Source: an uncultured Rhodospirillales bacterium (GTDB lineage Bacteria > Pseudomonadota > Alphaproteobacteria > Azospirillales > Azospirillaceae). Taken from it: a stretch of 64,000 nucleotides of DNA. Every line of letters begins with the position of its first letter. Position 1 is the stretch's first letter. The translations under genes and the position numbers were made by a program. The stretch is from positions 4,042 to 68,041 of the forward strand of contig CAIYNU010000086.1 in the NCBI GenBank assembly GCA_903927615.1, written 5' to 3'. Shown here one piece after another: positions 1 through 64,000 of this stretch. The notes under the pieces were generated by a model. It did no database searches, was not told where the DNA came from, and saw only the letters and a program-made list of their open reading frames with translations.

Positions 1-156
1 GACGCACACGCACTGGTCGCCCACCACCGAGGCCGGGAGGAAGCTGATCAGCACCGCGGGCACGCAGGGGCTCACGATCGGACCGCCGACGTGCGGCACC
101 ACCCCGGTGACCATCGGGCAGACATGCATATCGGTCAGTCGTGCGGCGGGCGGCAT
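1..156 (-). CDS. PAAR-domain protein, first 52 codons only (gene continues past the left edge of the window)
   Basis: Reverse complement of 1-156 is open with ATG at 156-154. It reads MPPAARLTDMHVCPMVTGVVPHVGGPIVSPCVPAVLISFLPASVVGDQCVCV. This contains an N-terminal PAAR motif, the H-x-CP motif and a second PAAR-like LPAsvvGD motif. It is absent from the ORF track because it is truncated. Confidence 0.6.
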   Translation of the reverse strand, partial: MPPAARLTDMHVCPMVTGVVPHVGGPIVSPCVPAVLISFLPASVVGDQCVCV

Positions 157-22026: not shown

Positions 22027-22407
22027 TGACCGTCCTGTGGCTTTGAGCGTCCTTGAACCCCGGGGGGCCGGCAGCCGGTGAAGCATTTCGTGATGGTGGG
22101 AACTATCGGGAAGAGGACACCGTTCCGGCAAGCACCGTGCGAAGCCGCGGCGATTTGCCGCCGCTTAGCTACTCACTGACCTGTGTATTGTTCGCGTAAT
22201 AGGGATTGCCGGATGGGCCGTCCTGGTTTCCCGATTGGACTGCCGGCAGGGTTTTGGATCGGTTCCGGACCGAGTCCCAAGGGGCGCGGCGTCGGTCCCC
22301 TTGAAAAGTCGAAAGACTATCCTAAATTTTAGACATCTGACGGGGCTTGCGAGAGAGCCGTTCGCCCGGGGTTTAGGGGATTGGGTGCGGGCGGCGAGGG
22401 TTGTCCC

Positions 22408-46267: not shown

Positions 46268-48736
46268 ATGACAGAGGGAACGATTACGCCATCGCTTGCG
46301 GTCGGCGTTATCGGGGATACGCCGTCTCGCCCGACCCCGGACGACGGCTTCGGCGTTCAGGACCGCCTGGTCATCGGCCAGGTTCTGCGGTCGTGGCTGG
46401 ATGCCCGGTGCCTGACGCCGACCGAACTGCTTTATGATCCCCAGGCCCTGGCCGGTCTGCTGGCTGAACCGGGGACCATGGCGGCGGCGCTTCGGGAGCT
46501 GCCGCCGGGGTCGGGGCAACCGGGCGGCATCGAGGCCGGGCCGGCGATGTTCGATCACTTGCGGGTTCGGGCTGCGGCGGCCGGGACGGCCCTGGATGGC
46601 TTGGCTCAGGCCGGGCCGCCCTTGGACGTGCTCCGGCAGCGCGGCGGCGAACCGGGCCAGTCCGCCGAACAGGATCACCTGCTGCGGGCCGCCATTTGCC
46701 GGGAGCTGGTCGGTTGCCGGAGCTGGCTGGAAAAGCTGGCCCTGCTGGTCGGTCTGGTCCGCGCCGACGCCGGCGGGACGACTGGTGACGGGATGCCGGG
46801 TGGCGGGCTGGCCGGGCTGGTGGACGGCCTGGTGGCGGACCTGTTGGGCGCCGGCACCGTGCTGACCGAGTTGTTTGGAGCGCATCCCTATCTTGGGGTC
46901 AATCTGCGCCGGTCCCTGGACCTGGCGCTGACCGTGCTGGCGCGTCCGGCGGACGGGGCCGGGACCCCACTTCTGTTCGACCTCAACGAGTTGCTGGTGG
47001 CGGGTCGGTTGCCCTGCGCCCGCGCGGCTTTGCTCGACCGGGTTCGCGGGCAACTGGGCTCGCCGCTCCCGCTGGGCTCGGGGCGGCGGGAGGAGGACAT
47101 CCGACTATTCCACGAGCTGCTGGGGATTCTGGCGACGCCCGCCGGCGTGATCGGCGAGGGTGCCATGGCCGAAGCGTTGGTGGTGCGCTATGCCCGCCGG
47201 CTGGACCAGGACGGCGGCGCGATTGTTCAGCCGGCGATTCAGGGTGTGGTCGAGACTCTGCCCAACCTGTTCTCCCGGCTCTATTTCCTGGCGGCGTTGG
47301 CGTGCTCGCCGCTGGGCCGGCGGTCCATCGACGAGGTGATGGTGCTGGTCGATGCCGCGGCTCACAATCAGACATTGATCGAAAGCGCGGTGTTTCGTCC
47401 CTTCGATCCTGTGGCGTTGCACGGGGCGCTGGCGCAGGCCGCGGCGGCGTTCGATCGGGCTGGCCTGCCCGACACGGTCGCCGCTCGTCTGCGCGGCCGG
47501 ATTACCGGCCTGGTCGACGCCTTTGTGGCGCGGGGCAGTTTTTTGGACCTGATGGATGCCCATGAACCCTCGGTGCCCCGGCGCAACCAGGGGCTGGCGG
47601 CGGTGATCACGGCTGGTCTGGTCACCGAATTCGGCGGCAAGCCCTTGATTGAACAACATATCGACCGGATCGCGGAGCGCGCCGCAGCCGGCGGCGGGTC
47701 GGTTTCGGTGTTGCGCACGCCGGGCTGGCCGCAACTGGTCGGCCGCGAGGCGGGGGTTCCCTTGATTTCGCGCTTTGGCCGCTACCGCTGTCCATACTGC
47801 TTCGAAGCCAAACGAGGCGGTGTGTTGTGCCTGGTTTGCGGCTATGACGAAATCGAGGGCGCGCGGCCCGGTGTTCACCTGTCGGCCGGGACCCTGCTTC
47901 AGGGCCGTTATGTGATCGGCCGCCTGATCGGACAAGGCGGCTTTGGCGCGACCTATCTCGGTTGGGACGAGCGACTCCAGGTCAAGGTGGCGCTCAAGGA
48001 ATACTTCCCGGTGAGTCTGGCCGGGCGGGCCGAGGGGGGGGCGCTCAAGCCATACGTCGAGGCGCACATCGGCACCTTCCGCGATGGCATCGTCAAATTC
48101 ATTGAAGAAGCCCGAACGCTGACCCGGTTACGCTACGTCAAAGAGGTCGTCGAGGTTCTCGACCATTTTGAGGCGAATGGAACGGCCTATCTGGTGATGG
48201 AATTGCTGATCGGCCGGACCCTTCAGCGGTATCTGTTGGAAGAAGGGGGCAGTATCGACTACCGGCGGGCGCTGGGCTTGATGCTGCCGATTGCCAAAGC
48301 GGTTCATGAAGTCCACCGGCTGGGTTTGGTGCATCGTGATATCAGTCCCGATAATATCTTCCTGCTGGATGGCGGTGAGGCCAAACTGCTGGACTTTGGC
48401 GCCGCCCGTCATTGCATCGGCGAGGCCCTGGGCGCCTTGACCGTGATTCTCAAGCGCGGCTACGCGCCGCCGGAGCAGTATGTTTCCGATGGTCGTCAAG
48501 GCCCGTGGACCGATGTTTACGCCCTGGCCGCGACCCTTTACTGCGCCATCACCGGCCGGCCGCCGCCGGATGCCGCCGCTCGCCAAGGAACCGAGTTGAT
48601 TCGACCGAGTCGCTTGGGCATCCACATCCCGCCGGCGGTTGAGGAGGTGTTGTTGGGTGGTCTGGCGCTGGGCTGGCAGGACCGGCCGCGGGACATGAAG
48701 ACTTTGCTCCAGGGCTTCAGTCGCGCCTTATCATAA
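46268..48736 (+). CDS. Ser/Thr protein kinase with an uncharacterised N-terminal region of about 520 aa and a CxxC...CxxC zinc ribbon preceding the C-terminal kinase domain
   Basis: CPYCFEAKRGGVLCLVCGYDE. Kinase motifs GQGGFGATYLG, VALKEY, HRDISPDNIFL, DFGAAR, GYAPPEQY. No TM segment and no motif recognised in the first approximately 520 aa. Confidence 0.85.
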   Translation: MTEGTITPSLAVGVIGDTPSRPTPDDGFGVQDRLVIGQVLRSWLDARCLTPTELLYDPQALAGLLAEPGTMAAALRELPPGSGQPGGIEAGPAMFDHLRVRAAAAGTALDGLAQAGPPLDVLRQRGGEPGQSAEQDHLLRAAICRELVGCRSWLEKLALLVGLVRADAGGTTGDGMPGGGLAGLVDGLVADLLGAGTVLTELFGAHPYLGVNLRRSLDLALTVLARPADGAGTPLLFDLNELLVAGRLPCARAALLDRVRGQLGSPLPLGSGRREEDIRLFHELLGILATPAGVIGEGAMAEALVVRYARRLDQDGGAIVQPAIQGVVETLPNLFSRLYFLAALACSPLGRRSIDEVMVLVDAAAHNQTLIESAVFRPFDPVALHGALAQAAAAFDRAGLPDTVAARLRGRITGLVDAFVARGSFLDLMDAHEPSVPRRNQGLAAVITAGLVTEFGGKPLIEQHIDRIAERAAAGGGSVSVLRTPGWPQLVGREAGVPLISRFGRYRCPYCFEAKRGGVLCLVCGYDEIEGARPGVHLSAGTLLQGRYVIGRLIGQGGFGATYLGWDERLQVKVALKEYFPVSLAGRAEGGALKPYVEAHIGTFRDGIVKFIEEARTLTRLRYVKEVVEVLDHFEANGTAYLVMELLIGRTLQRYLLEEGGSIDYRRALGLMLPIAKAVHEVHRLGLVHRDISPDNIFLLDGGEAKLLDFGAARHCIGEALGALTVILKRGYAPPEQYVSDGRQGPWTDVYALAATLYCAITGRPPPDAAARQGTELIRPSRLGIHIPPAVEEVLLGGLALGWQDRPRDMKTLLQGFSRALS

Positions 48737-49142: not shown

Positions 49143-50532
49143 ATGAAGAGGAACGGGATCAAAGGGCCGGTGGAGGCCGTTCGCGCGGCGGTTCTCCTGG
49201 GATTTTGCGGTGTCGCGGCCGGGGCGATGGTCGCCGCGGGTCCAGGCAGTGCCCGTGCGGCGGAGATCGATTTGCCGACGGGTTGGCATTTCTCGGGCGT
49301 GGCCCAGAAGTTGCCAAACGGTTTCACCAACATTAACGGTGTCCTGACCAAACCGGGCCAGGCGCCGATCAGCCTTCAGGGCGCCAACGCCACCACCCCG
49401 GATAACGTCGTTTACAACGCGAATGGCCAGATTGCCCTGAACAGCCAGGCCTATCGGCCGTTCCAGTGCAGTTACAACTCCGCGACCGGGGCCGTCTCGA
49501 ATCCCAACTGCCTGATTGCTTTCCAGGCCTTGTTTACCTCGCAACAATTGTCCGGCGCCGAAGTCGCGGCCCGTCAGGTCGCGGTTGTTCAAAGCCAGCG
49601 CGTTCAGGCACAACAAGCCGTCAATCTGATCGGTGCCCGTATCGCTGACGCCCTGCTCCCCAATCGGCGCGTGTCGGGTTCGACCAAGCAAAGCGACGCC
49701 GGCGGCGGGGTGGTGGCCATGGACGGCCGCAACGGCATCTCTGGGGTGTCGGCCGGCGACGACCAATACACCAACAGCCTGTGGGCCAGCTATAGCCATA
49801 GCTGGGTCGCCAACAACTGGAATGCCTTGAAGTCCCAATCGGACATCAACACCGGCGTGGTTGGCGGCGACGTCAAGATTCAGAATAACCTGTTGTTGGG
49901 TCTGACCTTCACCTATCAATCAAACGTGGGGACGACGAACTTTAACGACGGCACGCTCGATGCGTCGAGCTACACCTTCGTTCCCTACGGCGCCATCAGC
50001 TTCCTGGATAATCAGATCGTTCTTGATGTGATGTCCGGCGCTGGCTTCAGCGACAGCTCCACCAAGCGGTCGCGCAGTGTCGCCGCGGTGAGCGGTTCTT
50101 ATGGCAGCGATAGCTGGATGTTTGCCACCCACGCGACCTACAACCTGCCGGTCAATAACTGGAACCTTTCGGCCAAGGCCGGTTGGTTGATGACCTACAA
50201 TTGGGCCGACCGGTTCACGGAAAGCAACGGCACCGTCAATCCGACCCAGGTCACCCGGCTTGGCGAAGTCAGCCTGGCCGGTCGTGCGGGCTACACCATC
50301 GACCAGTTCGAGCCCTATACCGGTCTGACCTATGCCCATGACGTGATCCTTGCCCCCGGATGCGGTCGGAATGACCGGCGCAACCTTAGGCCGGGATGAA
50401 CTCGTTGCCTTGATCGGCCTGAACTGGACCGCCACCGATCGGGTCAACGCCGGCCTTGAACTGAGCAATACCTTCTTCCGCAAGAACGAAGACAACACCA
50501 CGGTGGTGGTGTCCGGGCGCTACGCCTTCTGA
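49143..50532 (+). pseudogene. Autotransporter-type outer-membrane beta-barrel protein, interrupted by a +1 frameshift at a C5 tract (50353-50357)
   Basis: Signal peptide and short passenger, then barrel-like alternating strands (LWASYSHSW, LLLGLTFTYQSN...). The 49143-frame ORF stops at 50399. The barrel C-terminus ...LIGLNWTATDRVNAGLELSNTFF....VVVSGRYAF continues in the next frame (50350-50532). Deleting one C from the C5 tract restores a continuous reading frame. Confidence 0.7.
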
Positions 50533-52081: not shown

Positions 52082-54667
52082 GTGCTTGAAGCCTATCGCC
52101 TGCATGTCGCTGAGCGTGCCGCGCTCGGGATTCCGCCCGTGCCGTTGACCGCGAAGCAGACCGAGGAGTTGACCGGCCTCCTGAAGTCCCCGCCCCAGGG
52201 CGAAGAGCAGGTTCTGGTCGACCTCATCACCTATCGGGTTCCGGCCGGTGTCGACGATGCCGCCAAGGTCAAGGCCGATTTTCTCGCCAAGCTGGCTCGG
52301 GGTGAAGAGACCTCGCCGCTGATCTCCAAGGTGAAGGCCACCGAGTTGCTCGGCACCATGCTCGGCGGCTTCAACATCAAGCCGTTGATCGGCCTGCTGG
52401 CCTGCCCCGAGTGCGCCGCGGCGGCGGCGGCCGGGTTGAAGACGACCCTCTTGATGTTCGATTACTTCCATGATGTCAAGGAGCTGGCCGACCAGGGCAA
52501 TGAGCCGGCCAAGGGCGTGTTGCAGTCCTGGGCCGATGCCGAGTGGTTTACCTCCCGTCCGGAAGTGCCGGCCAGCCTGACCATCACCGTGTTCAAGGTG
52601 ACCGGCGAGACCAACACCGACGACCTGTCGCCGGCTCCCGATGCCTGGAGCCGCCCTGACATCCCCCTGCATGCGTTGGCCATGCTGAAGAATGCCCGGC
52701 CGGGGATCAACCCCGACCAAGCCGGTGCCCGCGGCCCGATCGGGCAGTTGGACGCGCTGAAGGCCAAGGGGAACCTTGTGGCCTATGTCGGTGACGTGGT
52801 CGGCACCGGCTCTTCGCGGAAGTCCGCCACCAATTCGGTGTTGTGGTTCACCGGCGAGGACATTCCGTTCGTGCCCAACAAGCGGTTCGGCGGCGTCTGT
52901 CTGGGCACCAAGATCGCTCCGATCTTCTACAACACCATGGAAGACGCGGGCGCCCTGCCCATCGAGGTCGATGTGTCCCGGCTGGACATGGGCGACGTGG
53001 TGGAGTTGCGGCCCTATGACGGCAAGGTTCTGAAGAACGGCGAGGTCGTCGCCGAATTCACCGTCAAGTCCGAGGTGATTTTCGACGAAGTGCGGGCCGG
53101 TGGCCGGATTCCGTTGATTGTCGGCCGTGGCCTGACCAGCAAGGCGCGGGAGTCCCTGGGCCTGCCGGCCTCGACCCTGTTCCGCCTGCCGTCGGTCCCC
53201 GCCGACAGCGTCAAGGGCTTCACCCTGGCCCAGAAGATGGTCGGCCGCGCCTGCGGTCTGCCGGACAACGTGGGCATGCGTCCGGGGGCCTATTGCGAGC
53301 CGAAGATGACCACCGTCGGCTCCCAGGACACCACCGGCCCGATGACCCGGGACGAGTTGAAGGATCTGGCCTGCCTTGGTTTTTCGGCCGATCTGGTGAT
53401 GCAGTCGTTCTGCCACACCGCCGCTTATCCCAAGCTGGTGGACGTGAAAATGCATCACGAGCTGCCGGGCTTCATCGCCACCCGGGGCGGCGTCAGCCTG
53501 CGGCCCGGTGACGGCGTCATTCACTCGTGGCTGAACCGCCTGCTGATGCCCGACACCGTCGGCACCGGCGGCGATTCCCACACCCGCTTCCCCATCGGCA
53601 TTTCGTTCCCGGCCGGCTCCGGTCTGGTGGCGTTCGCCGCCGCCACCGGCGTCATGCCCCTGGATATGCCGGAATCGGTGCTGGTGCGTTTCAAGGGCCA
53701 GATGCAGTCGGGCGTTACCTTGCGGGATCTGGTTAACGCCATTCCGCTGTATGCCATCCGTCAGGGGCTGCTGACCGTCGAAAAGAAGGGCAAGAAGAAC
53801 ATCTTTTCTGGCCGTATCCTGGAAATCGAAGGTTTGCCCGACCTCAAGGTGGAACAGGCCTTCGAGCTGTCGGACGCCTCGGCCGAACGGTCCGCCGCGG
53901 CGTGTACCGTCCGGCTCGATCAGGCGCCGATCATCGAGTATCTGCGCTCGAACATCACCCTGATGAAGTGGATGATCGCCAGCGGCTATCAGGATGCCCG
54001 CACGCTTGGCCGGCGCATCAAGGCGATGGAAGCCTGGATCGCCAATCCGGTGCTGTTGGCCCCCGATGCCGACGCCGAATACGCGGCGGTGATCGAGATC
54101 GATCTGGCCGATGTGAAGGAACCCATCGTCGCCTGCCCCAACGATCCGGACGACGTGAAGCTGTTGTCCGACGTGGCCGGCGCCAAAATCGACGAAGTGT
54201 TCATCGGTTCGTGCATGACCAACATCGGGCACTTCCGTGCGGCGGCCAAGGTGCTGGACGGCATGTCCGACATTCCGACCCGGCTGTGGATTGCGCCGCC
54301 CACCAAGATGGACGCCCTGGTGCTGAACGAGGAAGGCTACTACGCCATTCTCGGCAAGTCGGGGGCCCGGATGGAGATGCCCGGCTGTTCGCTGTGCATG
54401 GGCAACCAGGCTCAGATCCGCAAGGGCTCCACGGCCATGTCGACCTCGACCCGGAACTTCCCGAACCGGCTGGGGATCGACACCCAGGTCTATCTCGGTT
54501 CGGCGGAATTGGCGGCGGTGTGCGCCCTGATGGGCAAAATCCCCACCGTGGCTGAATATCTGGAACAGGTGGCGGTTCTCAACAAGAAGGCTGCCGACAT
54601 CTATCGGTACATGAACTTTGACCAGATCCCCGTGTTCAGCGAGGTGGCGGACGGGGTTGCGGCGTAA
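52082..54667 (+). CDS. acnB: Aconitate hydratase B (bifunctional aconitase / 2-methylisocitrate dehydratase)
   Basis: The N-terminus [42 protein letters not shown] closely mirrors the E. coli AcnB N-terminus. Fe-S cluster Cys motifs lie in the C-terminal half. GTG start. Confidence 0.95.
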
Positions 54668-54806: not shown

Positions 54807-55274
54807 TTATCGCGAACGCCCGATCGGGCGCAGACGGATGGCGCCGGACCAGCTTTCCATTTCGATGGTGATGCCGGTTTGTCCGCCCACCCGTTCCGCC
54901 ACCAGGGGAATGTGCAGGCGGACCAGTTCCTGCCGGGCGAGGGCGATGTTTTGATGGCCGATGGCGAAGAGCGACAGCGCCTCTGGCCACAGGGCATTGG
55001 CACCGCCGAATATTTTGGCGGTCAAGGCGGGACCCCGGCTGCCCGACGCTTCCAGGTTCGCCACCAGTTGCCCGATGGCCGCGTCCCCGAAATAGGGATC
55101 GTCGCGCCGGTGGTTGGGCGCGTGGGGCATGACGAAATGGTTCATGCCGCCGATGCCCCGGATCGGGTCATGCAGACAGACGGCGACGCACGAGCCCAGC
55201 GTGGTGGCGATGACGCACGGCTCCAGGCCCACATGGTAGCACCCGGGCGTAATCGTGATCCGGGGCGTGGTCAT
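54807..55274 (-). CDS. cheD: Chemoreceptor glutamine deamidase CheD (orphan; no other che genes in the window)
   Basis: ITPGCYHVG..PCVIATTLGSCVAVCLHDPIRGIGGMNHFVMP. Confidence 0.85.
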   Translation of the reverse strand: MTTPRITITPGCYHVGLEPCVIATTLGSCVAVCLHDPIRGIGGMNHFVMPHAPNHRRDDPYFGDAAIGQLVANLEASGSRGPALTAKIFGGANALWPEALSLFAIGHQNIALARQELVRLHIPLVAERVGGQTGITIEMESWSGAIRLRPIGRSR

Positions 55275-55758
55275 AGGGACCGCCAAAGGACGTCCGAGCG
55301 GCTGTGGCGGACGCCGGTGGGCTCATCGGCCATGGGAACCTGGATTTTGGTGTTGGCTGTCATGATGGGGTCACGGATACCGGCTGCCCATGATGCTCGA
55401 GAACGCCTGAGACGGCCAGGGGGCGTGTAAGGGTGCGCCTGAGTCCGGACGAGTCCGGTTGTCAAGCTGAAAGGGAGGACGGACGGGTCAAACGCATGGC
55501 TCGCGGTTAGCAAGGTGTTCAACAACCAGTCTCAAAAGGCAGGCATTTTTCGGTTGAAGCTCTGCGTGATTGCGCCCATATCTTGGCGTAAGTTACCCGT
55601 CGGGGTTGCTGTTCGTTGGGCGGTTCCGTCAACTTCGAGGTGTTGACGATCGGTCCGACCAAACAGACTTTGTTCGAGAACCGGGCGGGTGTTGGCGTCC
55701 CGAGCCCATAACGGGTCCCGCGCCCGCACCAGGATACGCAACAGAAGGGGGCAATAGC

Positions 55759-56640
55759 ATGACAGATTTTGTCATTCAGCCGTCGGGCGGGGCCGGCTGG
55801 GGGGGCGGTTGGCGTCGCCGTGCGATCTCGATGGTGGCCAGTGTTTCATTGGTGACGGCCAGCCTGACCGGCTGTACGACGCAACAGTCGCGCATCGGGA
55901 CCGACGATGGAACCGATAGCTGCCGCACCTATGTGGTCGCGCTGGATTCCACGGGGAACTATTATGCCGAAGACATGATCCAGGGGGCCATGATCGGCGC
56001 CGTGGGCGGCGCCTTGATGGGCGGGTTGCTGAGCGGCAGTTGGAAGGGGGCGGCCGTGGGGGCCGCGGCCGGAGCGGTGGCCGGGGCGATCGGCGGTTAC
56101 TGGCAGAACCGGATGCAGCAGGGCCGGGATCAGGCGATTCTCTCGGTGGTGTCCGATATGCGGCATGAAAACGAGCAACTGGACAAAACCAACGGGGCCT
56201 TCCAGCAGCTTAGCGATTGCCGCCATCGGGAGGCGGCGCAAATCAAAGCCCAATACGCCGCCAAGGCGATCAGCCGGGAGGAGGCCCAAAGCCGGCTCCG
56301 GCATCTGGCCAGCCTCGCGCGCAAGGACCTGGAAATTTTGAATACCATCACCGCAAATTCGAACAAGCGGGTGAGCGAATACCAGTATGCCGCGGCCCAG
56401 ATCGATCCGAGCCTGCCGCCGCCGGCCCCCGAGCCGGTTTATCAACCGCCTGCCACGCCGGAGGCGACCAGGGCCGTCACCCCCCGGCACACCCCGACCG
56501 CGGCGCCCAAGCCTCGGGTGACCCAGCGCCCCGAATCGAGTCAGCAATTCGCCTCGCTTCAAGCCAAGAATACGTCGTTGAATGCCGGTAAGGCCAGTTA
56601 TGCTCAGGACGTCGGTGGTTGGGAGAACGGCGTAACCTGA
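55759..56640 (+). CDS. Hypothetical lipoprotein with glycine-zipper segment, coiled-coil region and Pro-rich tail
   Basis: Lipobox SLTGC. Glycine zipper GAMIGAVGGALMGGLLSGSWKGAAVGAAAGAVAGAIGG. GAAGGGGG Shine-Dalgarno sequence before ATG 55759. Confidence 0.6.
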   Translation: MTDFVIQPSGGAGWGGGWRRRAISMVASVSLVTASLTGCTTQQSRIGTDDGTDSCRTYVVALDSTGNYYAEDMIQGAMIGAVGGALMGGLLSGSWKGAAVGAAAGAVAGAIGGYWQNRMQQGRDQAILSVVSDMRHENEQLDKTNGAFQQLSDCRHREAAQIKAQYAAKAISREEAQSRLRHLASLARKDLEILNTITANSNKRVSEYQYAAAQIDPSLPPPAPEPVYQPPATPEATRAVTPRHTPTAAPKPRVTQRPESSQQFASLQAKNTSLNAGKASYAQDVGGWENGVT

Positions 56641-56944
56641 ATGGGCTACGGTTGACCGGAGGGCGGGGAGGGCGGAGCGGTCGGGGCCTGTCTTCCCCAG
56701 TCTTCCAAAACGGTCGAGACTCTATATGGAAACGGCGATTGTGGCGCAAATTCGCTGTGCACCTTGGAAAGCAACCGGCCGGCGGTCTGTTCGGCAGATC
56801 AAAAAATGGGTGAGGGGCAAAGCAGGTGGTAAGGTCGAGTAACAAATATCGAGACCGCTTCGTCGTCCGGTCGATCGACAATTCGGCGCCGGTGCTGAAA
56901 CAGGTGAAGCAAACTGTGGCAAACGGCGAACTGGAGATCGGATA

Positions 56945-57931
56945 ATGGCCGAAATAGACGAAGATGTTGCATGGAAAGTGGCGTGCTCGAAGGATACAAT
57001 AATTTCATATCAAGGGTTTCTTAAACAATTCCCGAAGAGTATGAGGGTCACAGCCGCTCAGATGCGGATTGACCGTTTACAGGATTGCGCTTCAGACGAT
57101 AAAAGTTTTTCGGCAGGCGGCGGGGCATCCCTGGCTGGTTTTCTTCTGGTGAGTTGTCGAAAGTTGTTATTGAATGTAACTAAAGTTATTTTGTTGTTAA
57201 TTGGAATTGGGTTTGGTGTCATTATAGTTAATTTTGAATGGATTAGAAGATTGGGATTCTTGCCCTATGATCGACGATTCGATGTCGTAGACTACAAAAT
57301 AATTATTGCTCTTATCATTTCTATCGTTGTTGCGGTTTGTGGGGCATTTGCTCAGAGGTATTTGCTAAAAAGAACAGTTTCTGTGATAAATTTATTGATA
57401 GTTTTTATTTTTTTATTTTCTGTTGTTATGGCGTGCATTTTTTCTTATCGAGGCGCCCTTTTGTTTGAAACCTTGGTTGGCCCTATATCACTTGAAAATG
57501 AAATTAATCGGTATGTGAATAAGCACGGCAAACCACCAGAAAACTTAGGGCAATTTGTTCCTCCCCACGCAATGGGCGGGGGTTTTTGGTATTGTATTGA
57601 TAATGAGAAGGCCTTGTTGATATCAACCCGGTTTATTAGCGGTGATACATATTATTCAACTAAAAATAAACATTATGGATTTCGTGACTGCGACCATGTT
57701 AGTGATGACTACCCGAAAATGGGTGTATATAACTGCGCACTATACCGATACGGAGAGGACGGGGCTTGGTCATCATCAAGCTTTATTGCCATAGACGCGA
57801 GCAAATACCAAGTAGATCAACAAAGCCTTGATCGAATTAGAAGTGTTATGGAGAAGTTTTCGAACACAAGCGGATCGGATCTGATAGTCGAAGCACTTAC
57901 GGCTTCAAAGTGTCACAGTGGTGGCTCGTGA
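56945..57931 (+). CDS. AT-rich hypothetical membrane protein (cytoplasmic N-domain, about 4 TM helices, Cys-containing C-terminal domain)
   Basis: 328-aa ORF in a markedly AT-rich stretch with Ile/Lys/Asn/Phe-rich composition. TM helices VILLLIGIGFGVIIVNF, IIIALIISIVVAVCGAF and LLIVFIFLFSVVMACIF. No homology recognised. Confidence 0.6.
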   Translation: MAEIDEDVAWKVACSKDTIISYQGFLKQFPKSMRVTAAQMRIDRLQDCASDDKSFSAGGGASLAGFLLVSCRKLLLNVTKVILLLIGIGFGVIIVNFEWIRRLGFLPYDRRFDVVDYKIIIALIISIVVAVCGAFAQRYLLKRTVSVINLLIVFIFLFSVVMACIFSYRGALLFETLVGPISLENEINRYVNKHGKPPENLGQFVPPHAMGGGFWYCIDNEKALLISTRFISGDTYYSTKNKHYGFRDCDHVSDDYPKMGVYNCALYRYGEDGAWSSSSFIAIDASKYQVDQQSLDRIRSVMEKFSNTSGSDLIVEALTASKCHSGGS

Positions 57932-58231
57932 AATTGCGGGTAAGTTTATGCTGATTTATGCCTATGATATCATAAGAATAGAATTGTTGCATTTTGTTGT
58001 GCATTCCCAAACCGGCACGGGAACGTTAAGGTGGTCTGCTATGAATAGCAATCCGATGAACTGTTGCCGTCGACACCGAAATTGCCGTCGTTCGCTCCTT
58101 CAGTATCGGGCGGAATTCTTCTATCAGTAGAATGGTTGTTATGCTCTGAGCCGCTGCCGGCATGAAGCTCGGGCTGTCGGGTGATATCACTTTCACAGAG
58201 CGGTCGCAGTCGGGTTGAAGGAGGGGGGAGC

Positions 58232-61200
58232 ATGAAGGTCTTCGGGCTTGATGGCAGGGGACAGGTTGCCCTGGTTGTGGCGTGGCTGTTGGCCGGTTGC
58301 TTTGCCGGCAGTGCTTGGGCCGTCACCTCCGCCGACCCGGTACCGGCGGCAAGTTTACCCGCCGCCGTCGGCGCTGAGCCGCCGACCCAGCCATTTTTGC
58401 GCATTGAAACCGGCATGCACACCGCGATCATCAACCGGGTTTCGGTGGATGCCTCGGGCCGGCTGGCGGCCACGGCATCGGACGACAAGACCGTTCGCCT
58501 GTGGTCGTTGCCCGAAGGCCGGGCCGTCGGCACGCTGCGGGTTCCGATCGGCGACGGCCCGGAAGGGGCGTTGTATAGCGTGGCGCTCTCGCCCGACGGC
58601 AAGCTGGTGGCGGCCGCCGGCCATGTCGGGGTGTTATGGGACGGCCAGCCGTCACTGTATCTTTTTGACGTGGCGACCCAAACCATCAAGCGACGACTGC
58701 CGCACCTGCGCAGTGAAATTCTTCATCTGGCGTTTTCTCCGGACGGTCGGCGACTGGCTGCCGCCTTTGGCGGCGGCGTCGGGGTGATCGTCTATGACAT
58801 GGCCACCGGCCGGGTGGTGGGCGAGGATCACCAGTTCGGGGGCGCACCGGTGAACTGGGTGACGTTCGATGCCGATGGTCGCATGGCGGTGGCGGCCTTC
58901 GACGGAACGGTTCGCCTTTACGATCAGACGGTGACGCTGATCGCCCGGCAGCGTCTGTCCGGGTCCGGCCGGCCGTTTTCCGTGGCCTTTTCGCCGGATG
59001 GCGGTCTGCTGGCGGTGGGTTCGTTCGACAAGCCGCGGGTCGATGTCCTCTCGGCCAGCGATCTCAAGCCGCGACTGAGCCCGGATACTGCCGACATCAG
59101 GACCGGCAACCTTGCGGCGGTGGCCTGGCTCAACGACGGCGGGCAGGTGTCCCTGGCGGCCGGGGGCACCGCCAGCACGTCCGCGGGGCGGCGGATGATC
59201 CGGGTCTGGGGCCGTTCGGGTCTGGGGCGGGCGGCCGATCTGCCGGTGGCCGGGGACTCCATCAACCAGATCGAGCCGTCGGGGCATGGTGAGGCGCTGT
59301 TTGTCAGCGCCGACCCGTCGTGGGGCCGAATCAACGGCTCCCAGGTGCTGCTGGCGGTGCCCAGCGCCATCGCCAACTTCCGGGAGATTTACGCCGGCCG
59401 CTTCGCGGTGTCCGACGATGCGCTGACGCTGGAGTTCGGGATTGCGGATAAGGGCGGGCATCCCATGCGCCTGGATCTGCGGGGCGAGTCCTATACGCCG
59501 GTTCAACAGGCCGACCCGACCCTCACGAAACCGGTGGTGGAGGTCCCGGGCCTGCGGATCACCGGCTGGCAGAACACCACCGCGCCCACCGTCAATGGCC
59601 GTAAGCTGGTGCTGGACGGCGAGGAACGGGCGCACAGTCTGGCCATTGCCCCGGACGGACGCAGCTTTCTGCTGGGTGGCGACTATTGGCTGCGGCTTTA
59701 TGATGCCAGGGGAACGCTGCTGGCCAAGGCCGCGCTGCCGGCGGCGGCCGGTGGCGTGGTGATCACCCGGTCCGGCAGCGTCGCCGTGGCGGCGCTTACC
59801 GACGGCACCTTGCGCTGGTATAACCTGGGCAGCAACGGTGCGGTGCTGGAAGAGCGTGCCACCCTGTTTGCCCATGCCGACGGCCGGCGCTGGGTGGCCT
59901 GGACGCCCGAAGGCTTTTTTGACCATGCCGAGCATGGCGGCAAAGATTTGGTCGGCTATCACCTCAACAAAGGCAAGGCCCAGACGCCGGAGTGGATCAG
60001 TTTTGCCCAGGTCTATCTGCGTTTTCACAGTTCGGATTTGCTGATCAAGAAAATACTGGGCGGTTATGACGACCAGATCGCCCGGGCGGCGGCGGCGGCG
60101 GGCGATTTGCGCACGGGGCCGCCGTTGCCCGGCGTCGAGATCACCGACTATTGCTGGAAGCCCGCCGGCGGTCCGGACCTCTGTCGGCCGATCGGTGAGA
60201 TCAGCACCCGGGGTTTCAACCGGGATTTTAACCGTCAGGCCGGCGCCGAACCGGGACCGTCGGCTCCGGGGCCGGTCGCCACCGGGCCGGTCGTTACCGG
60301 GGCGTCGATGCTGGCGCCGCTCACCGCCACCCTGCCGGCCGATGTGGCCGATGTGACCTTGAAGTTCCTGGTGGTCGATCGGGGCGGCGGGGTCGGTGAC
60401 GTTGCGGTGTATCTCAACGGCCGGAATATCGATCGCCAGGACGAGACGCGCGCGTTTCGTCGCGACGCCAGCGTCGGTGCCGGTCCCGCTGCGGTTGCGG
60501 CAGGACCGCCGTCGGTCCCGGGGCGGCCGGTCGCGCCCCCGCTCCCGTCTCCGTCTCCGTCTCCGTCTCCGGCCGGTCAGGTCTTTCAGCGGTCCGTGGC
60601 CTTGGCGTCCGGCGTCAACCGGACCGAGATTCGGGTGTATGAGGGCAGTGACACGGCGTTCGCCACGTCGCGGCCGGTGGAGCTGGTGCGGGCCGCGGCG
60701 GCGCCGTCCACCCGGGATCTCCAGGCCCAGCCGCCGGCCACGCCCCGGCTGTTTGTTCTGGCGGCCGGCGTCGATATCTACAAACGGCCGGAATTCCGAC
60801 TGAATTTTCCGGTTGCCGATGCCGAGGGGGTGGCCGAGACTCTGAAGGCGCATGTGGGCGATCTCTACGAGCAGGTGCTGGTGCCCAGCGTGACGCCGGA
60901 TCGCGACGTGGTGTTTGTGCCGTTCACCGGCGGCAAGGCCGCGCTTGCCAACGAGAATGCCAGCCTCGAAATGCTCGGGAAGGCGTTCGCCGCGTTGTCC
61001 CGGGATCAGGTGCTGCATGCCAACGATACGGTTGTCATCTATCTGGCCGGGCACGGAACCCGGGAAGATGATGGCGGCGGCAAGGGCCAGGCCGGCGGCA
61101 AGTTCTATTTCATCACCTCGAATGTCGACAGCCCCGACACGGTGCGGACGCAGGCGCTGGGACAGGATGCGCTGCTGGCCCAACTGGTGGCCATCAACAG

Positions 61201-61594
61201 CCGCAAGGCGCATATCTTGCTGGTGCTCGACACCTGTCATTCGGGCGCCTTTGCCCGGGAGGCGCCGCTGGATGCCATCGCCAATCTCAATGACGAAGCG
61301 GGCATCTCGGTGCTGGCCGCCGCCGCGTCCAACCAGGAGGCGTTGGACGGCTATCGGCCGCGGACCGGAGGGCCGGCCCAGCACGGCGTGTTCGCGTATG
61401 CGGTGATCTCGGGACTGGCCGGCGCCGCCACCGCCGACGAAACCGGGATCATCTATCCGACTTTTCTGGCCCAGTACGTCAAGCACGCGGTGGTGGCGCT
61501 GGCCGCCGAGGTCAGCCCGACGCACCAACAACAGGCAAAGTGGCAGCCGTTGGGAGAAGAGGAAGACTTCCCATTGGTCCGCAAGAGTCGCTGA
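58232..61594 (+). CDS. Sec-exported WD40 beta-propeller protein with C-terminal caspase-fold (peptidase C14) domain
   Basis: Signal peptide MKVFGLDGRGQVALVVAWLLAGCFAGSAWA. WD40-like blades (TASDDKTVRLWSL, FDGTVRLYD, LAFSPDGRRLAAA, VAFSPDGGLLAVGS, LTDGTLRWYNL). Pro/Ser linker PLPSPSPSPSPAG. C14 dyad IYLAGHGT (His 61052-61054) and LVLDTCHSGAF (Cys 61235-61237). Strong Shine-Dalgarno sequence GAAGGAGGGGGG. Confidence 0.85.
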   Translation: MKVFGLDGRGQVALVVAWLLAGCFAGSAWAVTSADPVPAASLPAAVGAEPPTQPFLRIETGMHTAIINRVSVDASGRLAATASDDKTVRLWSLPEGRAVGTLRVPIGDGPEGALYSVALSPDGKLVAAAGHVGVLWDGQPSLYLFDVATQTIKRRLPHLRSEILHLAFSPDGRRLAAAFGGGVGVIVYDMATGRVVGEDHQFGGAPVNWVTFDADGRMAVAAFDGTVRLYDQTVTLIARQRLSGSGRPFSVAFSPDGGLLAVGSFDKPRVDVLSASDLKPRLSPDTADIRTGNLAAVAWLNDGGQVSLAAGGTASTSAGRRMIRVWGRSGLGRAADLPVAGDSINQIEPSGHGEALFVSADPSWGRINGSQVLLAVPSAIANFREIYAGRFAVSDDALTLEFGIADKGGHPMRLDLRGESYTPVQQADPTLTKPVVEVPGLRITGWQNTTAPTVNGRKLVLDGEERAHSLAIAPDGRSFLLGGDYWLRLYDARGTLLAKAALPAAAGGVVITRSGSVAVAALTDGTLRWYNLGSNGAVLEERATLFAHADGRRWVAWTPEGFFDHAEHGGKDLVGYHLNKGKAQTPEWISFAQVYLRFHSSDLLIKKILGGYDDQIARAAAAAGDLRTGPPLPGVEITDYCWKPAGGPDLCRPIGEISTRGFNRDFNRQAGAEPGPSAPGPVATGPVVTGASMLAPLTATLPADVADVTLKFLVVDRGGGVGDVAVYLNGRNIDRQDETRAFRRDASVGAGPAAVAAGPPSVPGRPVAPPLPSPSPSPSPAGQVFQRSVALASGVNRTEIRVYEGSDTAFATSRPVELVRAAAAPSTRDLQAQPPATPRLFVLAAGVDIYKRPEFRLNFPVADAEGVAETLKAHVGDLYEQVLVPSVTPDRDVVFVPFTGGKAALANENASLEMLGKAFAALSRDQVLHANDTVVIYLAGHGTREDDGGGKGQAGGKFYFITSNVDSPDTVRTQALGQDALLAQLVAINSRKAHILLVLDTCHSGAFAREAPLDAIANLNDEAGISVLAAAASNQEALDGYRPRTGGPAQHGVFAYAVISGLAGAATADETGIIYPTFLAQYVKHAVVALAAEVSPTHQQQAKWQPLGEEEDFPLVRKSR
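60545..60568 (+). repeat. (CCGTCT)x4 hexanucleotide microsatellite encoding (SP)n in the propeller-caspase linker
   Basis: Read directly: ccgtct ccgtct ccgtct ccgtct, followed by ccgg. Confidence 0.9.
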
Positions 61595-61647
61595 TCCGGG
61601 GGTTCGGACCGAAGCCGGGGTCGATGCTGTGAAGGGAGGCCGATGCC

Positions 61648-63663
61648 GTGGGTTGGACGATGAGAATGATGGCCATTTTGGTCCTGATCGTTGCCGGTGC
61701 GGCGACCGGCCGGAGTGCTGCGGCGGCCACCGAGATTTACGGGCTGGTGATCGGCATTGATAACTACACCGGCCTTGCGCCCAAGCTGCAAGGCGCCGTG
61801 AACGACGCCCGGGACGTGGCCGACGCCCTGACCAAGAGCGGGGCGCGCGAGGTCAAGCTGTTGATCGACGGCGCCGCCAATCGCGATGCGATCATGGCCG
61901 CCTGGGACGCGCTGCTGGGGCGGGCCAAGAAAGGTGATATCCTGATTTTCCATTACGCCGGCCATGGCGGCCAGGAGCCCGAGCATGTCAAAGGCTCGGA
62001 GGCCACCGGCTATGATTCGACGTTGCTACTGCCGGCCTTCGACATTCAGGGCGAGGGGACCCGCGAACGCCTCATTGACGACGAATTGGGCTGGATGTTC
62101 AAGCGGGCCTCGGACGTCGGCATCACCGTGCTGGTGGTGATCGACGCCTGCCATTCCGGCTCCATGACCCGTGCGTTCGACAATGCCGCCGTGGCCAAGC
62201 CACGGGTGCGGGCCGCGACCTATCCGCCGATCCTGATCACCGACGATCGCCTGCCGCCGTTTCCCCCCGCGTGGGCGGAGATTCCCGAAGATCTGCCCAA
62301 CGTCATCTATTTCGGTGCGGTTCAGGACGACGAGGAGGCGCCGGAGGTGGTCATCAATGGCCAGGTCCGGGGCGCGCTGAGTTGGGCGTTGGCCCAGGGA
62401 CTGCGGGGGGGCGCCGACGCCCGGCACGACGGCGTCATCACCAAAGAGGAACTCCAGGCCTTCATCACCGAAAACATCCGGATGCAGTTGGAGGGCCGGC
62501 AGCATCCCTCGGTGATTCCGCCGGGTTTCCGTTCTCTGGCGTTTCCGGCTCCGGCCGGGGCCAAGGGACCGCTGGAGGCTGCGGCGAGCCCGTTGGACCT
62601 CGCGGTGCCGTTAGCCATCATCCATACCTCGGGCGTTGACGCCACCGACCTGGCGGCGTCCCTGAAAGGCGTCATGCTGGCCGATGCCGGGGGGACGGTG
62701 GTTCCGGCGGTGATGTGGGACGTGGCGGCAGGCCGGATCACCGCCGCCGACGGCCAGGTGGTTGCCGATTTTGCCGCTGACCCCACCCGGGGCATTCGCC
62801 GCACCGATTCGCCGCCGGCGGCCCCTCCGGCCCATGACGGCCGCAGCGATCTGCCCAAGGTTCAGGCGGCTCTCGACCTGTGGCGACAGACCGCAACCCG
62901 ACCACCGGCGGAATCGGGCGGGGCGCTGACCCTGGCGGTGATCAACACCGACCGGCTCGGCCCCGAGGACCTGACGCGGAGTCTGCGGGGTGTGAAACCG
63001 GTGGCGGTCAATGCCGATCCGGCGCCGATGCTGACGTGGGATGTTGCCCGGGGGCAGGTGTTCACCAATCTCGGCGATCTGGTGTACCAGTTCGGTGACC
63101 GCAAGGCCGACGATCCCACCCGGGGGTTCACCCGGGCGGTGGCCGCCGGCGACAACCGCCCGGCCAACGACGGTCGCGGCGATCTGCCCAAGTTTCAGGA
63201 CGTGGTCGACAACTGGCAGGCGGTTCAGCGGATCAAGCGGTTGGCGGAAAGCCGGAGCTTGCAGATGGCCCTGAAACCCGACGATAAACGGCATACCGAC
63301 GGCGCCAAACTGACCTTCGTCATTGAAGGCCACAACCAGACCTATTTCACGCTGTTTAATCTTGGGTCCGATGGGACGGTCAATTTCCTCTATCCCCTGG
63401 ATACCGCCGAAGTGAAGGACCCGTTACAGATTCCGTTGGGCCGTGCTTATACCGTGCCGCTGGTGGTCGAGGCCCCGTACGGCGCCGATCATCTGGTGGC
63501 CATCGCCAGTGCCCAGCCGCTGACCGCGTTGCACAAGACCCTTCAGGAGTTTGACGGCAAGCCGATGGCCAGCGCGTTGGTGACGGTCCTGCTGAAGGAC
63601 CTTGAGGGGCAGACCTACCAGATCGGCGTTCACGGGTCCTACACCGCCGCGGCAAAACCCTGA
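61648..63663 (+). CDS. Sec-exported caspase-fold (peptidase C14) protein with an internal tandem duplication of about 105 aa and a DUF4384-like C-terminal domain
   Basis: Signal peptide MRMMAILVLIVAGAATGRSAAAA. C14 core YGLVIGIDNY...LQGAVNDARDV...ILIFHYAGHGG (His 61963-61965) and VLVVIDACHSGSM (Cys 62149-62151). C-terminus LTFVIEGHNQTYFTLFNLGSDGTVNFLYP resembles DUF4384 (recalled from memory). Confidence 0.85.
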   Translation: MGWTMRMMAILVLIVAGAATGRSAAAATEIYGLVIGIDNYTGLAPKLQGAVNDARDVADALTKSGAREVKLLIDGAANRDAIMAAWDALLGRAKKGDILIFHYAGHGGQEPEHVKGSEATGYDSTLLLPAFDIQGEGTRERLIDDELGWMFKRASDVGITVLVVIDACHSGSMTRAFDNAAVAKPRVRAATYPPILITDDRLPPFPPAWAEIPEDLPNVIYFGAVQDDEEAPEVVINGQVRGALSWALAQGLRGGADARHDGVITKEELQAFITENIRMQLEGRQHPSVIPPGFRSLAFPAPAGAKGPLEAAASPLDLAVPLAIIHTSGVDATDLAASLKGVMLADAGGTVVPAVMWDVAAGRITAADGQVVADFAADPTRGIRRTDSPPAAPPAHDGRSDLPKVQAALDLWRQTATRPPAESGGALTLAVINTDRLGPEDLTRSLRGVKPVAVNADPAPMLTWDVARGQVFTNLGDLVYQFGDRKADDPTRGFTRAVAAGDNRPANDGRGDLPKFQDVVDNWQAVQRIKRLAESRSLQMALKPDDKRHTDGAKLTFVIEGHNQTYFTLFNLGSDGTVNFLYPLDTAEVKDPLQIPLGRAYTVPLVVEAPYGADHLVAIASAQPLTALHKTLQEFDGKPMASALVTVLLKDLEGQTYQIGVHGSYTAAAKP

Positions 63664-63814
63664 TTACGCTGACCGGTTCCCGATTGCGCCGGGAGCCCGA
63701 AAGGGCCACACTGCCACACTGCCGGACTGGCGGTCGGGATGATCCTGGTCCAGGCCGTACCAGAACCGCGCCATACCACAAGACGGTGTGCGGGGCCTTG
63801 AGCCAAGGTGGTTG

Positions 63815-64000
63815 ATGAGCGGCGATACCACGGGATTTTATGAGCTGCTGCTGACCCTGAGGACGCTGTATCAGTACGCCGGGAGCGTGGTGGCCGACGC
63901 CGCCCTGTTGCGGGCCGAGGCTTTCACCAGGCGACTGATCAACGAAGATCGCCTTCCCTACATGATTCTTCTACAAGTGCTCCATGACTTCCTATACATG
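63815..64000 (+). CDS. 5' end of an unidentified ORF running off the right edge of the window
   Basis: ATG at 63815, then 62 open codons to the window end (MSGDTTGFYELLLTLRTLYQYAGSVVADAALLRAEAFTRRLINEDRLPYMILLQVLHDFLYM). Mostly GC-rich third positions. No motif recognised. Confidence 0.35.
   Translation, partial: MSGDTTGFYELLLTLRTLYQYAGSVVADAALLRAEAFTRRLINEDRLPYMILLQVLHDFLYM

Follow-up and report, generated by a model that had tools for sequence, protein, structure and literature searches.

To our knowledge, studies of bacterial caspase homologs have until now dealt with death or defence effectors of the cytoplasm. Exported homologs are listed in surveys, and no characterised one was found in the searchable literature. 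Here we analyse a locus in a stretch of 64,000 nucleotides (nt) of DNA from an uncultured Rhodospirillales bacterium, the whole of which is called the window below. The locus occupies positions 55759-64000, reads on the + strand and contains five open reading frames (ORFs). An earlier reading of this DNA, referred to as the original prediction, had proposed that two adjacent genes of the locus encode exported caspase-fold proteases that act on the cell envelope. Gene neighbourhoods and alignments show that three genes, encoding a glycine-zipper lipoprotein, a WD40-caspase and a second caspase with a DUF4384 domain (caspase-DUF4384), constitute a co-inherited unit whose products are predicted to be exported.

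A number of described systems resemble parts of this trio. In NlpI-Prc of E. coli and LbcA-CtpA of P. aeruginosa, an outer-membrane lipoprotein and a periplasmic protease act on envelope proteins, with a repeat domain selecting the substrate. The folds are unrelated, however, as these systems combine a tetratricopeptide repeat (TPR) lipoprotein with an S41 serine protease, whereas the trio has a glycine-zipper lipoprotein and two C14 cysteine proteases. In the bacterial gasdermin systems, a caspase-like activating protease is encoded beside a membrane-active protein. These proteases are cytoplasmic; the trio contains no gasdermin, and the neighbour of its caspases is a lipoprotein without the cleavage-like motif that the two caspases share. 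The Apaf-1 apoptosome with caspase-9 and caspase-3 has in common with the trio a tandem double β-propeller tied to caspase activity and the presence of two caspases in one pathway. On the other hand, Apaf-1 has an NB-ARC/NACHT NTPase and a CARD, both of which the trio lacks, while the trio carries propeller and caspase on one chain. The trio is moreover predicted to be periplasmic, where there is no ATP, and its propeller matches generic tandem WD40 folds and not Apaf-1 specifically. Finally, the second caspase domain has its best structural and second-best sequence match in GSU0716 of Geobacter sulfurreducens (PDB 3bij), a single-domain structural-genomics protein with no known partner genes.

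In type VI secretion, TagQ is an outer-membrane lipoprotein required to sense outer-membrane damage, for damage-triggered firing (PMC11881912). According to a 2026 review of accessory factors, the upstream activators of the type VI phosphorylation pathway vary by taxon, TagQRST has been studied only in Pseudomonas, Serratia uses another activator, and TagR is listed under COG1262; a caspase or WD40 protein is not mentioned there (PMC13584744). As described in the accessible text of two surveys, the prokaryotic metacaspase-like proteases (orthocaspases; PMC3501461, PMC6426788) have, like the trio caspases, a C14 fold, a His/Cys dyad and an acidic S1 pocket. The same text gives WD40 as the commonest metacaspase partner domain (PMC3501461, Asplund-Samuelsson et al. 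2012; PMC6426788, Klemencic et al. 2019) and names FGE-sulfatase as one of the domains most often found fused to metacaspases of bacteria (PMC3501461). It reports architectures only, and within it the three-gene unit, the lipoprotein, the tandem propeller-Ig-caspase layout, the loop motif and the type VI link do not appear; the metacaspase-NACHT-WD40 protein that it covers carries an NTPase, whereas the WD40-caspase of the window has none and is predicted to be exported. DUF4384 has previously been noted with kinases and proteases.

The original prediction had also stated that no characterised system of this composition was known to it. This stands for the searchable literature, in which we found no description of the three-gene unit, the TagQ-like lipoprotein, the propeller-Ig-caspase layout, the shared motif or the type VI context, and no paper linking metacaspases to type VI secretion. 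However, the 2012 survey (PMC3501461) had already catalogued fusions of WD40 with metacaspases, likely signal peptides, alphaproteobacterial operons with several metacaspases, and OmpA neighbours. The genes of the trio in the window are the following:

55759-56640, + strand: lipoprotein, 293 amino acids (aa), with lipobox LTG↓C and Gly-zipper_YMGG domain
58232-61594, + strand: WD40-caspase, 1120 aa, with WD40/β-propeller and Peptidase_C14 domains (Pfam)
61648-63663, + strand: caspase-DUF4384, 671 aa, with Peptidase_C14 and DUF4384 domains (Pfam)

The search for homologs comprised the contexts of seven homologs, a scan of 185,579 species genomes and a tblastn comparison of the window proteins with 85 loci. 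The WD40-caspase gene adjoins the caspase-DUF4384 gene in 28 fetched loci, and the lipoprotein was detected in 22 of those. The trio was found in Rhodospirillales, Azospirillum, Magnetococcales and some Gammaproteobacteria, in four arrangements. Rhodospirillales metagenome-assembled genomes and Magnetococcales have the genes in collinear order, most Azospirillum have them divergent and A. fermentarium convergent, and in two Pseudomonadota genomes the order is permuted (caspase-DUF4384, lipoprotein, WD40-caspase). Because the linkage is kept through four gene orders, chance neighbours can be ruled out. The pairing of the two caspase genes, from which the original prediction started, is in this way conserved across orders. 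In the window, as had been read earlier, the two genes are on the same strand with 53 nt between the stop of the first (61594) and the start of the second (61648); the gaps are small elsewhere too, and the ORF calls overlap in loci L043 and L067. The pairwise-identity matrices of the three proteins correlate with r = 0.93-0.95. No other neighbour is conserved with the trio beyond lineage-specific synteny. Partial sets do exist: Roseomonas has the lipoprotein/WD40-caspase pair without the caspase-DUF4384, and a large sister clade of the caspase-DUF4384 lacks the WD40 partner; in this clade the caspase-DUF4384 gene is often immediately preceded by an OmpA-like gene or has a second caspase behind it.

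The most likely start codon of the WD40-caspase is ATG 58232; it is preceded by a GGAGG Shine-Dalgarno sequence and gives a product of 1120 aa identical to the public gene call (the public protein P0121 is 100% identical). For these reasons the start of the longest ORF, GTG 58181, is considered unlikely. The parts of the protein, all encoded on the + strand, are:

58232-58321: Sec signal peptide, residues 1-30
58394-60001: tandem double β-propeller, residues ~55-590
60131-60691: helical hairpin followed by an immunoglobulin (Ig)-like region, residues 634-820, including Cys641 and Cys651
60737-61546: C14 domain, residues 836-1105, with Asp863 and Asp1000 as S1-pocket residues
61052-61054: His941 of the dyad
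61235-61237: Cys1002 of the dyad

Peptidase_C14 (PF00656) scores 31.8 bits in this protein, compared to the gathering score of 21.4. Pfam WD40/β-propeller models are also above gathering, and there is a weak match to a WDR5-type propeller model. The AlphaFold2 (AF2) model (predicted local distance difference test, pLDDT, 87.1; predicted template modelling score, pTM, 0.85) consists of a signal helix, continuous β-structure at ~55-590, a helical hairpin, the Ig-like region at 634-820, which is interrupted by disordered inserts at 663-693 and at 747-776 (Pro/Ala-rich), and the caspase domain at 840-1105. Foldseek matches the N-terminal part to the tandem propellers of 2ymu, Aip1, Utp21 and Apaf-1. 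The WD40 region claimed originally is thereby borne out as a tandem double propeller. The Ig-like linker matches nothing in Pfam.

For the C-terminal domain, the whole-model Foldseek matches are dominated by the propeller, and the assignment comes from the confident model together with the alignment to the other caspase. The domain alone gave nothing at E <= 1 against PDB sequences, and the dyad was therefore placed via the second caspase and the ortholog alignment. The AGHG and DTCHSG motifs are in register with the dyad of the caspase-DUF4384; the two domains are 22% identical, with His, Cys and the upstream Asp aligned. In 70 full-length orthologs, His941, Gly942, Asp863 and Asp1000 never vary, and 69 of them have Cys1002. 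A distant WD40-caspase, from a deltaproteobacterial metagenome-assembled genome (L091, 7001-10000), is located within a prophage-like element that also encodes two integrases, a small terminase subunit and a primase/helicase.

The caspase-DUF4384 is built as follows, again on the + strand:

61648-61728: Sec signal peptide, residues 1-27, with no prodomain behind it
61735-62547: C14 domain, residues 30-300, with Asp53 and Asp166 as S1-pocket residues
61963-61965: His106 of the dyad
62149-62151: Cys168 of the dyad
62599-62892 and 62920-63246: two copies of an α/β module, residues 318-415 and 425-533
63298-63519: DUF4384 β-sandwich, residues 551-624, with two helices behind it

Here, Peptidase_C14 reaches 63.8 bits (gathering 21.4). 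The HYAGHGGQ and DACHSG motifs correspond residue for residue to HYSGHGGQ and DSCHSG of yeast Mca1, and the catalytic Cys pairs with the Ala of the Mca1 C276A mutant chain 4f6p. His106, Cys168, Asp53 and Asp166 are invariant in 25 homologs. Asp144 and Asp145 align with the DD pair of yeast Mca1, which hints at Ca2+ dependence. The AF2 model (pLDDT 84.7, pTM 0.77) displays the caspase domain, two modules of β-α-β4-helix type, and a β-sandwich with two helices. Foldseek finds GSU0716 (3bij), MALT1 and AtMC4 as the best matches; these and caspases are matched at E-values of 1e-5 to 7e-11. The duplicated module and the DUF4384 of the original prediction are both recovered: the copies are 39% identical (E 3e-19), and DUF4384 scores 31.5 with a Pfam threshold of 27 and is present in 13 of 15 family representatives. 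Two module copies occur only in the three closest homologs. The module itself matches nothing in Pfam, and a profile search of the DUF4384 region against the PDB returned sub-threshold Ig-like matches only.

The signal peptide of the caspase-DUF4384 ends shortly before the caspase fold, as every complete ortholog has an export signal 3-5 residues ahead of the first caspase strand, leaving no room for a prodomain. The protein fits neither the type I nor the type II metacaspases, having no Pro-rich/zinc-finger prodomain and a short p20-p10 loop. In the clade without the WD40 partner, the gene directly upstream encodes an OmpA-like peptidoglycan-associated protein of ~305 aa at loci L011, L022, L028, L029, L033, L037, L046, L075 and L079, and one homolog, P0075, is an OmpA-caspase fusion.

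Both proteins display what characterises the C14 family, that is, the Pfam score, the fold, and a catalytic dyad that is in register and conserved. The original prediction of C14 domains with intact dyads is hence well founded, and both domains, with dyad and acidic S1 pocket kept, are apparently active. The two Asp residues presumably line the S1 pocket, an assignment that we take over from TbMCA2 and Yca1. Since two invariant Asp residues are assigned to this pocket, we infer that both caspases cut after Arg or Lys.

The third member of the unit is the lipoprotein, whose 293-aa product is identical to the public gene call. The signal peptide and lipobox LTG↓C (residues 36-39) end at Cys39 (nt 55759-55875), and the glycine zipper at residues 73-114 (nt 55975-56100) is followed by a coiled-coil region and a Pro-rich tail. 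Gly-zipper_YMGG (PF13441) scores 33.7 bits, with a gathering score of 28.9. With its lipobox, which is kept in orthologs, and its above-threshold zipper domain, the protein qualifies as a glycine-zipper outer-membrane lipoprotein (SlyB/PCP-like). It had been recognised as such in the original prediction, and we find in addition that it is part of the conserved unit. Its orthologs adjoin the WD40-caspase in 22 loci and have the common motif RIGxDDGxDxC...LDSTG..AED as well as a second Cys; the family keeps two Cys residues, in DSCR and SDCR.

Conservation is strong directly behind the lipidated Cys, in residues 40-68 (window 55876-55960), which read T..RIGxDDGxDxCR.YVVxLDSTG.YYAED. This segment, which has a conserved Arg six or seven residues from the lipid anchor, could be a binding or cleavage site. 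Some relatives of the lipoprotein carry an SH3_3 domain. In NCBIfam, the top match of the window lipoprotein is TagQ (NF041250) with E 9e-18, under the cut-off. TagQ was likewise the best NCBIfam match for all five lipoproteins compared, from the window and four orthologs of different orders (E 1e-9 to 5e-21, 37.7-75.4 bits), and the ortholog of A. lipoferum covers positions 3-267 of the 301 of the profile. All five miss the curated equivalog cut-off of 300 bits. By these profile scores, the lipoprotein is a distant TagQ relative and not a TagQ member.

The predicted location of the three proteins is the next element of the argument. In both window caspases an N-terminal hydrophobic segment is followed by AWA or AAA, consistent with the Ala-x-Ala signal peptides that had been read earlier, and every complete ortholog of either family has an export signal that consists of a positive segment, a hydrophobic stretch and a small-x-small site. 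For the WD40-caspase this signal is located 10-20 residues before PFLRIETG, the conserved opening of the propeller in this family. A twin-arginine motif is absent from both window caspases. A potential lipobox, LAGC, in the WD40-caspase was rejected in favour of signal peptidase I; because it is not conserved in orthologs, the protein is probably soluble and periplasmic. The Cys641/Cys651 pair (window 60152-60184) is kept in 66 of the 70 orthologs. This pair and that of the lipoprotein family suggest disulfide bonds, and the conservation fits an oxidising compartment.

Exported clan CD proteases exist, and one can therefore ask whether the proteases are released as exoproteases or antagonistic effectors of gingipain type, or whether the genes are neighbours without a common function. 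A fratricidal role was raised by Asplund-Samuelsson et al. (PMC3501461). We consider this whole group of explanations highly improbable: the trio has no linked secretion-system signal, C-terminal sorting domain or dedicated exporter, the outer-membrane lipoprotein and the cell-wall-associated partner domains argue for retention in the periplasm, and unrelated neighbours would not stay linked through the four gene orders.

A short motif, [ST]R[GA][FYL]xR, is common to both caspases and lies in disordered loops, and its copies in the WD40-caspase are located at the edges of length-variable inserts. The copies in the window are:

60206-60223, + strand: TRGFNR, WD40-caspase residues 659-664, at the start of disordered insert 663-693
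60446-60463, + strand: TRAFRR, WD40-caspase residues 739-744, just before disordered insert 747-776
62785-62802, + strand: TRGIRR, caspase-DUF4384 residues 380-385, in the disordered loop after module copy 1
63118-63135, + strand: TRGFTR, caspase-DUF4384 residues 491-496, in the disordered loop after module copy 2

The strict pattern is present in 43 of 70 WD40-caspases (5.2 from shuffles) and in 15 of 25 caspase-DUF4384 proteins (0.6 from shuffles). The second copy of the WD40-caspase aligns as TR[GA]FxR in about 45 of the 70 orthologs, and many orthologs have an extra copy in the loop between the two cysteines. The column of the first WD40-caspase copy is kept in the trio clade, and both columns are missing from distant WD40-caspases that have no partner gene. 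Similarly, 10 loci with a WD40 partner have the motif in their caspase-DUF4384, compared to about 1 of the 57 loci that lack such a partner. The lipoprotein does not contain it.

Two roles can be considered on the basis of the sequence: the motifs may be processing sites for the Arg-specific proteases, or they may serve the propeller as docking peptides. Binding of short peptides with an Arg is common among WD40 propellers, an example being the WIN motif that binds WDR5. In the docking case the trio would assemble into a multivalent complex, and proteolysis would be confined to external substrates. The restriction of the motif to genomes in which the propeller protein is encoded next door, the two to three copies per protein and the weak WDR5-type match are all in favour of docking. 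However, an Arg-rich motif in a disordered loop is equally what an Arg-specific protease would cut, and overall we judge docking to be unlikely. It would change only one step of the mechanism that we propose below and is otherwise compatible with it.

We now compare the gene context of the trio with the type VI pathway. In A. lipoferum 4B (NC_016623.1), the gene order is lipoprotein, WD40-caspase, tssL, tssM, tagF, vgrG, DUF4123, PAAR, tagH (Fha), Ser/Thr kinase, hydrolase. The caspase-DUF4384 gene is divergent from this row, and a PP2C phosphatase is encoded ~5 kb beyond. In this kinase, the catalytic domain is N-terminal, and there are a single membrane segment, a Pro-rich linker and, on the periplasmic side, a DUF4384 (Pfam E 1e-11); by its predicted layout the protein is of PpkA-type topology and carries the same DUF4384 domain as the second caspase. 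The genes tssL-tssM-tagF directly follow the WD40-caspase in eight Azospirillum loci. In two other Azospirillum loci, from two species (L012, 4587-5453 on the - strand, and L015), the gene directly after the WD40-caspase instead encodes a stand-alone secreted protein, 72% identical to the periplasmic DUF4384 part of the A. lipoferum kinase.

The TagQ-TagR(-TagST)-PpkA-Fha pathway of the P. aeruginosa H1 type VI system has the same outline, in that a lipoprotein and a periplasmic partner head a cluster with tagF, fha/tagH and a membrane Ser/Thr kinase with a periplasmic sensor. There are also clear differences. The match of the trio lipoprotein to TagQ is far under the cut-off. The periplasmic partner in P. 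aeruginosa is TagR, a protein of COG1262 (which we take to be the FGE-sulfatase family), instead of two caspase-fold proteases. No TagS/TagT is annotated in the A. lipoferum cluster. The sensor domain of the kinase is DUF4384 in A. lipoferum, while that of PpkA is a von Willebrand A domain. Most trio copies, including that of the window, are not beside type VI genes at all.

A second lineage in which this caspase family appears beside a type VI cluster, judging from the gene content, is Stappiaceae. In 20 loci of this family, a caspase-Sel1-PG_binding_1 gene and a caspase-DUF4384 relative are found a few genes from PAAR, ClpV and TssG:

L052 6870-21473, and 19 other loci: block with caspase-Sel1-PG_binding_1 (905 aa), caspase-DUF4384 relative, 236-aa protein, CHASE2-nucleotide cyclase, M23 peptidase, PAAR-like protein, ClpV and TssG

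In the window, a fragment of a PAAR-domain gene at 1-156 (- strand) has 85% protein identity to the PAAR of the A. lipoferum type VI cluster, and the organism probably has a type VI system just beyond the window. A window Ser/Thr kinase at 46268-48736 (+ strand; 822 aa, kinase domain at residues 548-770, and a 547-residue N-terminal region that matches no family) was considered as a PpkA analog and rejected, as it has no membrane segment and no DUF4384.

We tentatively favour the interpretation that the trio is a self-contained periplasmic sensing and proteolysis module, TagQ/TagR-like in its logic, although we would place it somewhat short of an even chance. In this mechanism, the lipoprotein would relate to the propeller-caspase as TagQ does to TagR, holding or controlling it at the inner face of the outer membrane, and the propellers would bind a ligand or substrate. 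The two Arg/Lys-specific proteases would stay latent until self-cleavage or mutual cleavage at the TR[GA]FxR loops, and such cuts would part the propellers and DUF4384 from the catalytic domains. DUF4384 could then be the interface to downstream partners. In this way, the module would monitor the state of the envelope and turn a change into proteolysis. In Azospirillum it would be connected to type VI secretion through the threonine-phosphorylation branch, while in the window organism it would stand alone.

It is important to point out that a number of observations weigh against this interpretation. The TagQ match is far under the curated cut-off (65 vs 300 bits), and the glycine zipper and signal peptide may account for part of it. 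The Azospirillum caspase-DUF4384 proteins have lost the motif loop, so that processing at the motif cannot be universal. The correlations between the identity matrices also mirror the species phylogeny. As to type VI secretion, the eight Azospirillum and 20 Stappiaceae loci represent approximately one evolutionary event each, neither the window trio nor any trio locus outside Azospirillum has a type VI gene at a distance of 10 kb or less, and the sole type VI trace in the window, the PAAR fragment, is 55 kb from the trio. Finally, the module is known here from sequences, gene neighbourhoods and single-chain models only.

A more specific and rather doubtful version is that the trio is an apoptosome-like periplasmic sensor. 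Here, the TagQ-like lipoprotein would work with the double-propeller caspase to detect damage to the outer membrane or an attack by a neighbouring cell, the caspases would cut themselves and each other at TR[GA]FxR, and the freed catalytic or DUF4384 fragments would switch on effectors, which in Azospirillum would be the DUF4384 PpkA-type kinase that fires type VI secretion. If true, no earlier case of caspase-family signalling in a cascade outside the cytoplasm would be known, and the trio proteins would be a new class of type VI accessory proteins.

The surroundings of the trio raise another option. The window genes around it are housekeeping or signalling genes: BamA (Omp85, five POTRA domains) at 39376-41727, an autotransporter β-domain protein at 49143-50399, aconitase B at 52082-54667 and CheD at 54807-55286 (- strand). 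Farther upstream are large PAS/GGDEF/EAL and hybrid histidine kinase genes (998-4342, 4644-8684 and 18670-22131). Promoter and terminator scans of the locus were at background level and uninformative.

This chromosomal context, with aconitase B, CheD and BamA, would agree with a housekeeping function, in which a lipoprotein adaptor and periplasmic proteases, as in NlpI-Prc or LbcA-CtpA, degrade cell-wall hydrolases or envelope proteins during growth without any signalling. The adjacency to type VI genes in Azospirillum would then be incidental or reflect the maturation of secretion-system parts. Inheritance looks vertical, as expected for such a role, and partners that bind the wall or envelope recur, namely the OmpA-like genes upstream of the caspase-DUF4384 in the clade without the WD40 partner, the SH3_3 domain on lipoprotein relatives, PG_binding_1 with DUF4384 nearby, and the caspase-Sel1-PG_binding_1 protein of Stappiaceae. 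However, this scenario does not explain why two distinct caspases with a common loop motif are kept together, nor the presence of a PpkA-type kinase with the same DUF4384 in the same operon, and no peptidoglycan-hydrolase gene is consistently linked to the trio. We regard it as less than likely, with a minor share of the probability.

The remaining features of the locus are a variable slot inside the trio, with a membrane gene, and an ORF behind it:

56641-58148, no strand: low-GC slot, 44% guanine-cytosine (GC) content, strain-variable, between the lipoprotein and WD40-caspase genes
56945-57931, + strand: ORFan membrane protein, 328 aa, 41% GC, 3-4 hydrophobic segments, no family match
63815-64000, + strand: downstream ORF, 62 codons, running past the end of the window

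The original prediction had placed a foreign membrane gene upstream of the caspases. The gene does differ from its surroundings, with its 41% GC compared to 65-68% for the neighbours and its hydrophobic segments, but it turns out to be an unrelated strain-specific insertion outside the unit. Contig L088, which is 99.4% identical to the window, has a different sequence upstream of 58149, where the homology ends, and the space between the lipoprotein and WD40-caspase genes is therefore a strain-variable slot. In other genomes the two genes are adjacent or overlapping according to the ORF calls, with nothing in between. No convincing flanking repeats, tRNA or Rfam match were found around the slot.

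The ORFan protein has no homolog in the 85 loci (tblastn), no match in Pfam, NCBIfam, PADLOC or PHROG, and no full-length relative but itself among 1.84 billion representatives, and it was accordingly rejected as a component of the module. Its residues 5-50 form a single TPR-like repeat of the type seen in multi-repeat proteins with PG_binding_1, caspase or kinase domains. The downstream ORF, which the original prediction had mentioned as following the caspase genes, is not conserved with the unit: it has no homolog in any of the 85 loci (tblastn) and no Pfam match, which places it outside.

Caspase-like proteases act in bacterial conflict systems, and the trio could in principle be an envelope suicide or abortive-infection cascade. 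In such a scenario, which is the original prediction in its defence form, phage or damage would be sensed by the propeller-caspase, and the second caspase, once activated by it, would either destroy envelope proteins or make the glycine-zipper lipoprotein membrane-damaging, as in the protease-activated bacterial gasdermins. The best NCBIfam and PADLOC matches of the caspases are conflict-system caspase models, one distant WD40-caspase lies in a prophage-like element, the locus contains the strain-variable slot, and the lipoprotein has, behind its lipid anchor, the conserved Arg of the RIG motif. Nevertheless, the specific searches do not point in this direction. In PADLOC-DB 2.0 only the generic caspase model PDLC02987 and a weak HEAT-ARM match were obtained, with no system-specific component. 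Neither caspase has a family match to a NACHT/NB-ARC/AAA NTPase (Pfam, NCBIfam, PADLOC), the four window proteins give no Pfam or PADLOC match to gasdermin, and no gasdermin is among the listed neighbours on seven related contigs. There is likewise no toxin or immunity gene, and the annotated neighbours on these contigs and in the window include no recognisable defence genes, so these neighbourhoods are not defence islands.

A relative of the WD40-caspase was also sought in 50,697 phage records, without a match. The lipoprotein lacks the shared motif, and defence cargo is not typically inherited in a stable, vertical manner on chromosomes and chromids, as the trio is. We thus find the suicide cascade quite improbable. 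The original prediction had named envelope damage, phage and contact responses as possible settings. The envelope and contact part has gained from the TagQ-like lipoprotein and the type VI clusters of Azospirillum, while the link to phage has not, with no phage record matched, only the generic PADLOC caspase and no defence neighbours. Its two-tier scheme, in which one caspase is the sensor or initiator and the other the executor, finds no support in these results.

The analysis defines a conserved three-gene unit, with its catalytic residues and its candidate cleavage or docking motifs. A cultivable carrier is available in Azospirillum lipoferum 4B, where the genes AZOLI_RS23685, RS23690 and RS33670 are located in a type VI operon beside Fha and the DUF4384 kinase. 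The unit bears on how type VI systems that are controlled by threonine phosphorylation sense attack outside Pseudomonas and Serratia. If the type VI link is true, it would add regulated periplasmic proteolysis to this pathway and give DUF4384 a role. If it is false, the trio would still represent an unexplored two-protease system of the Gram-negative envelope.

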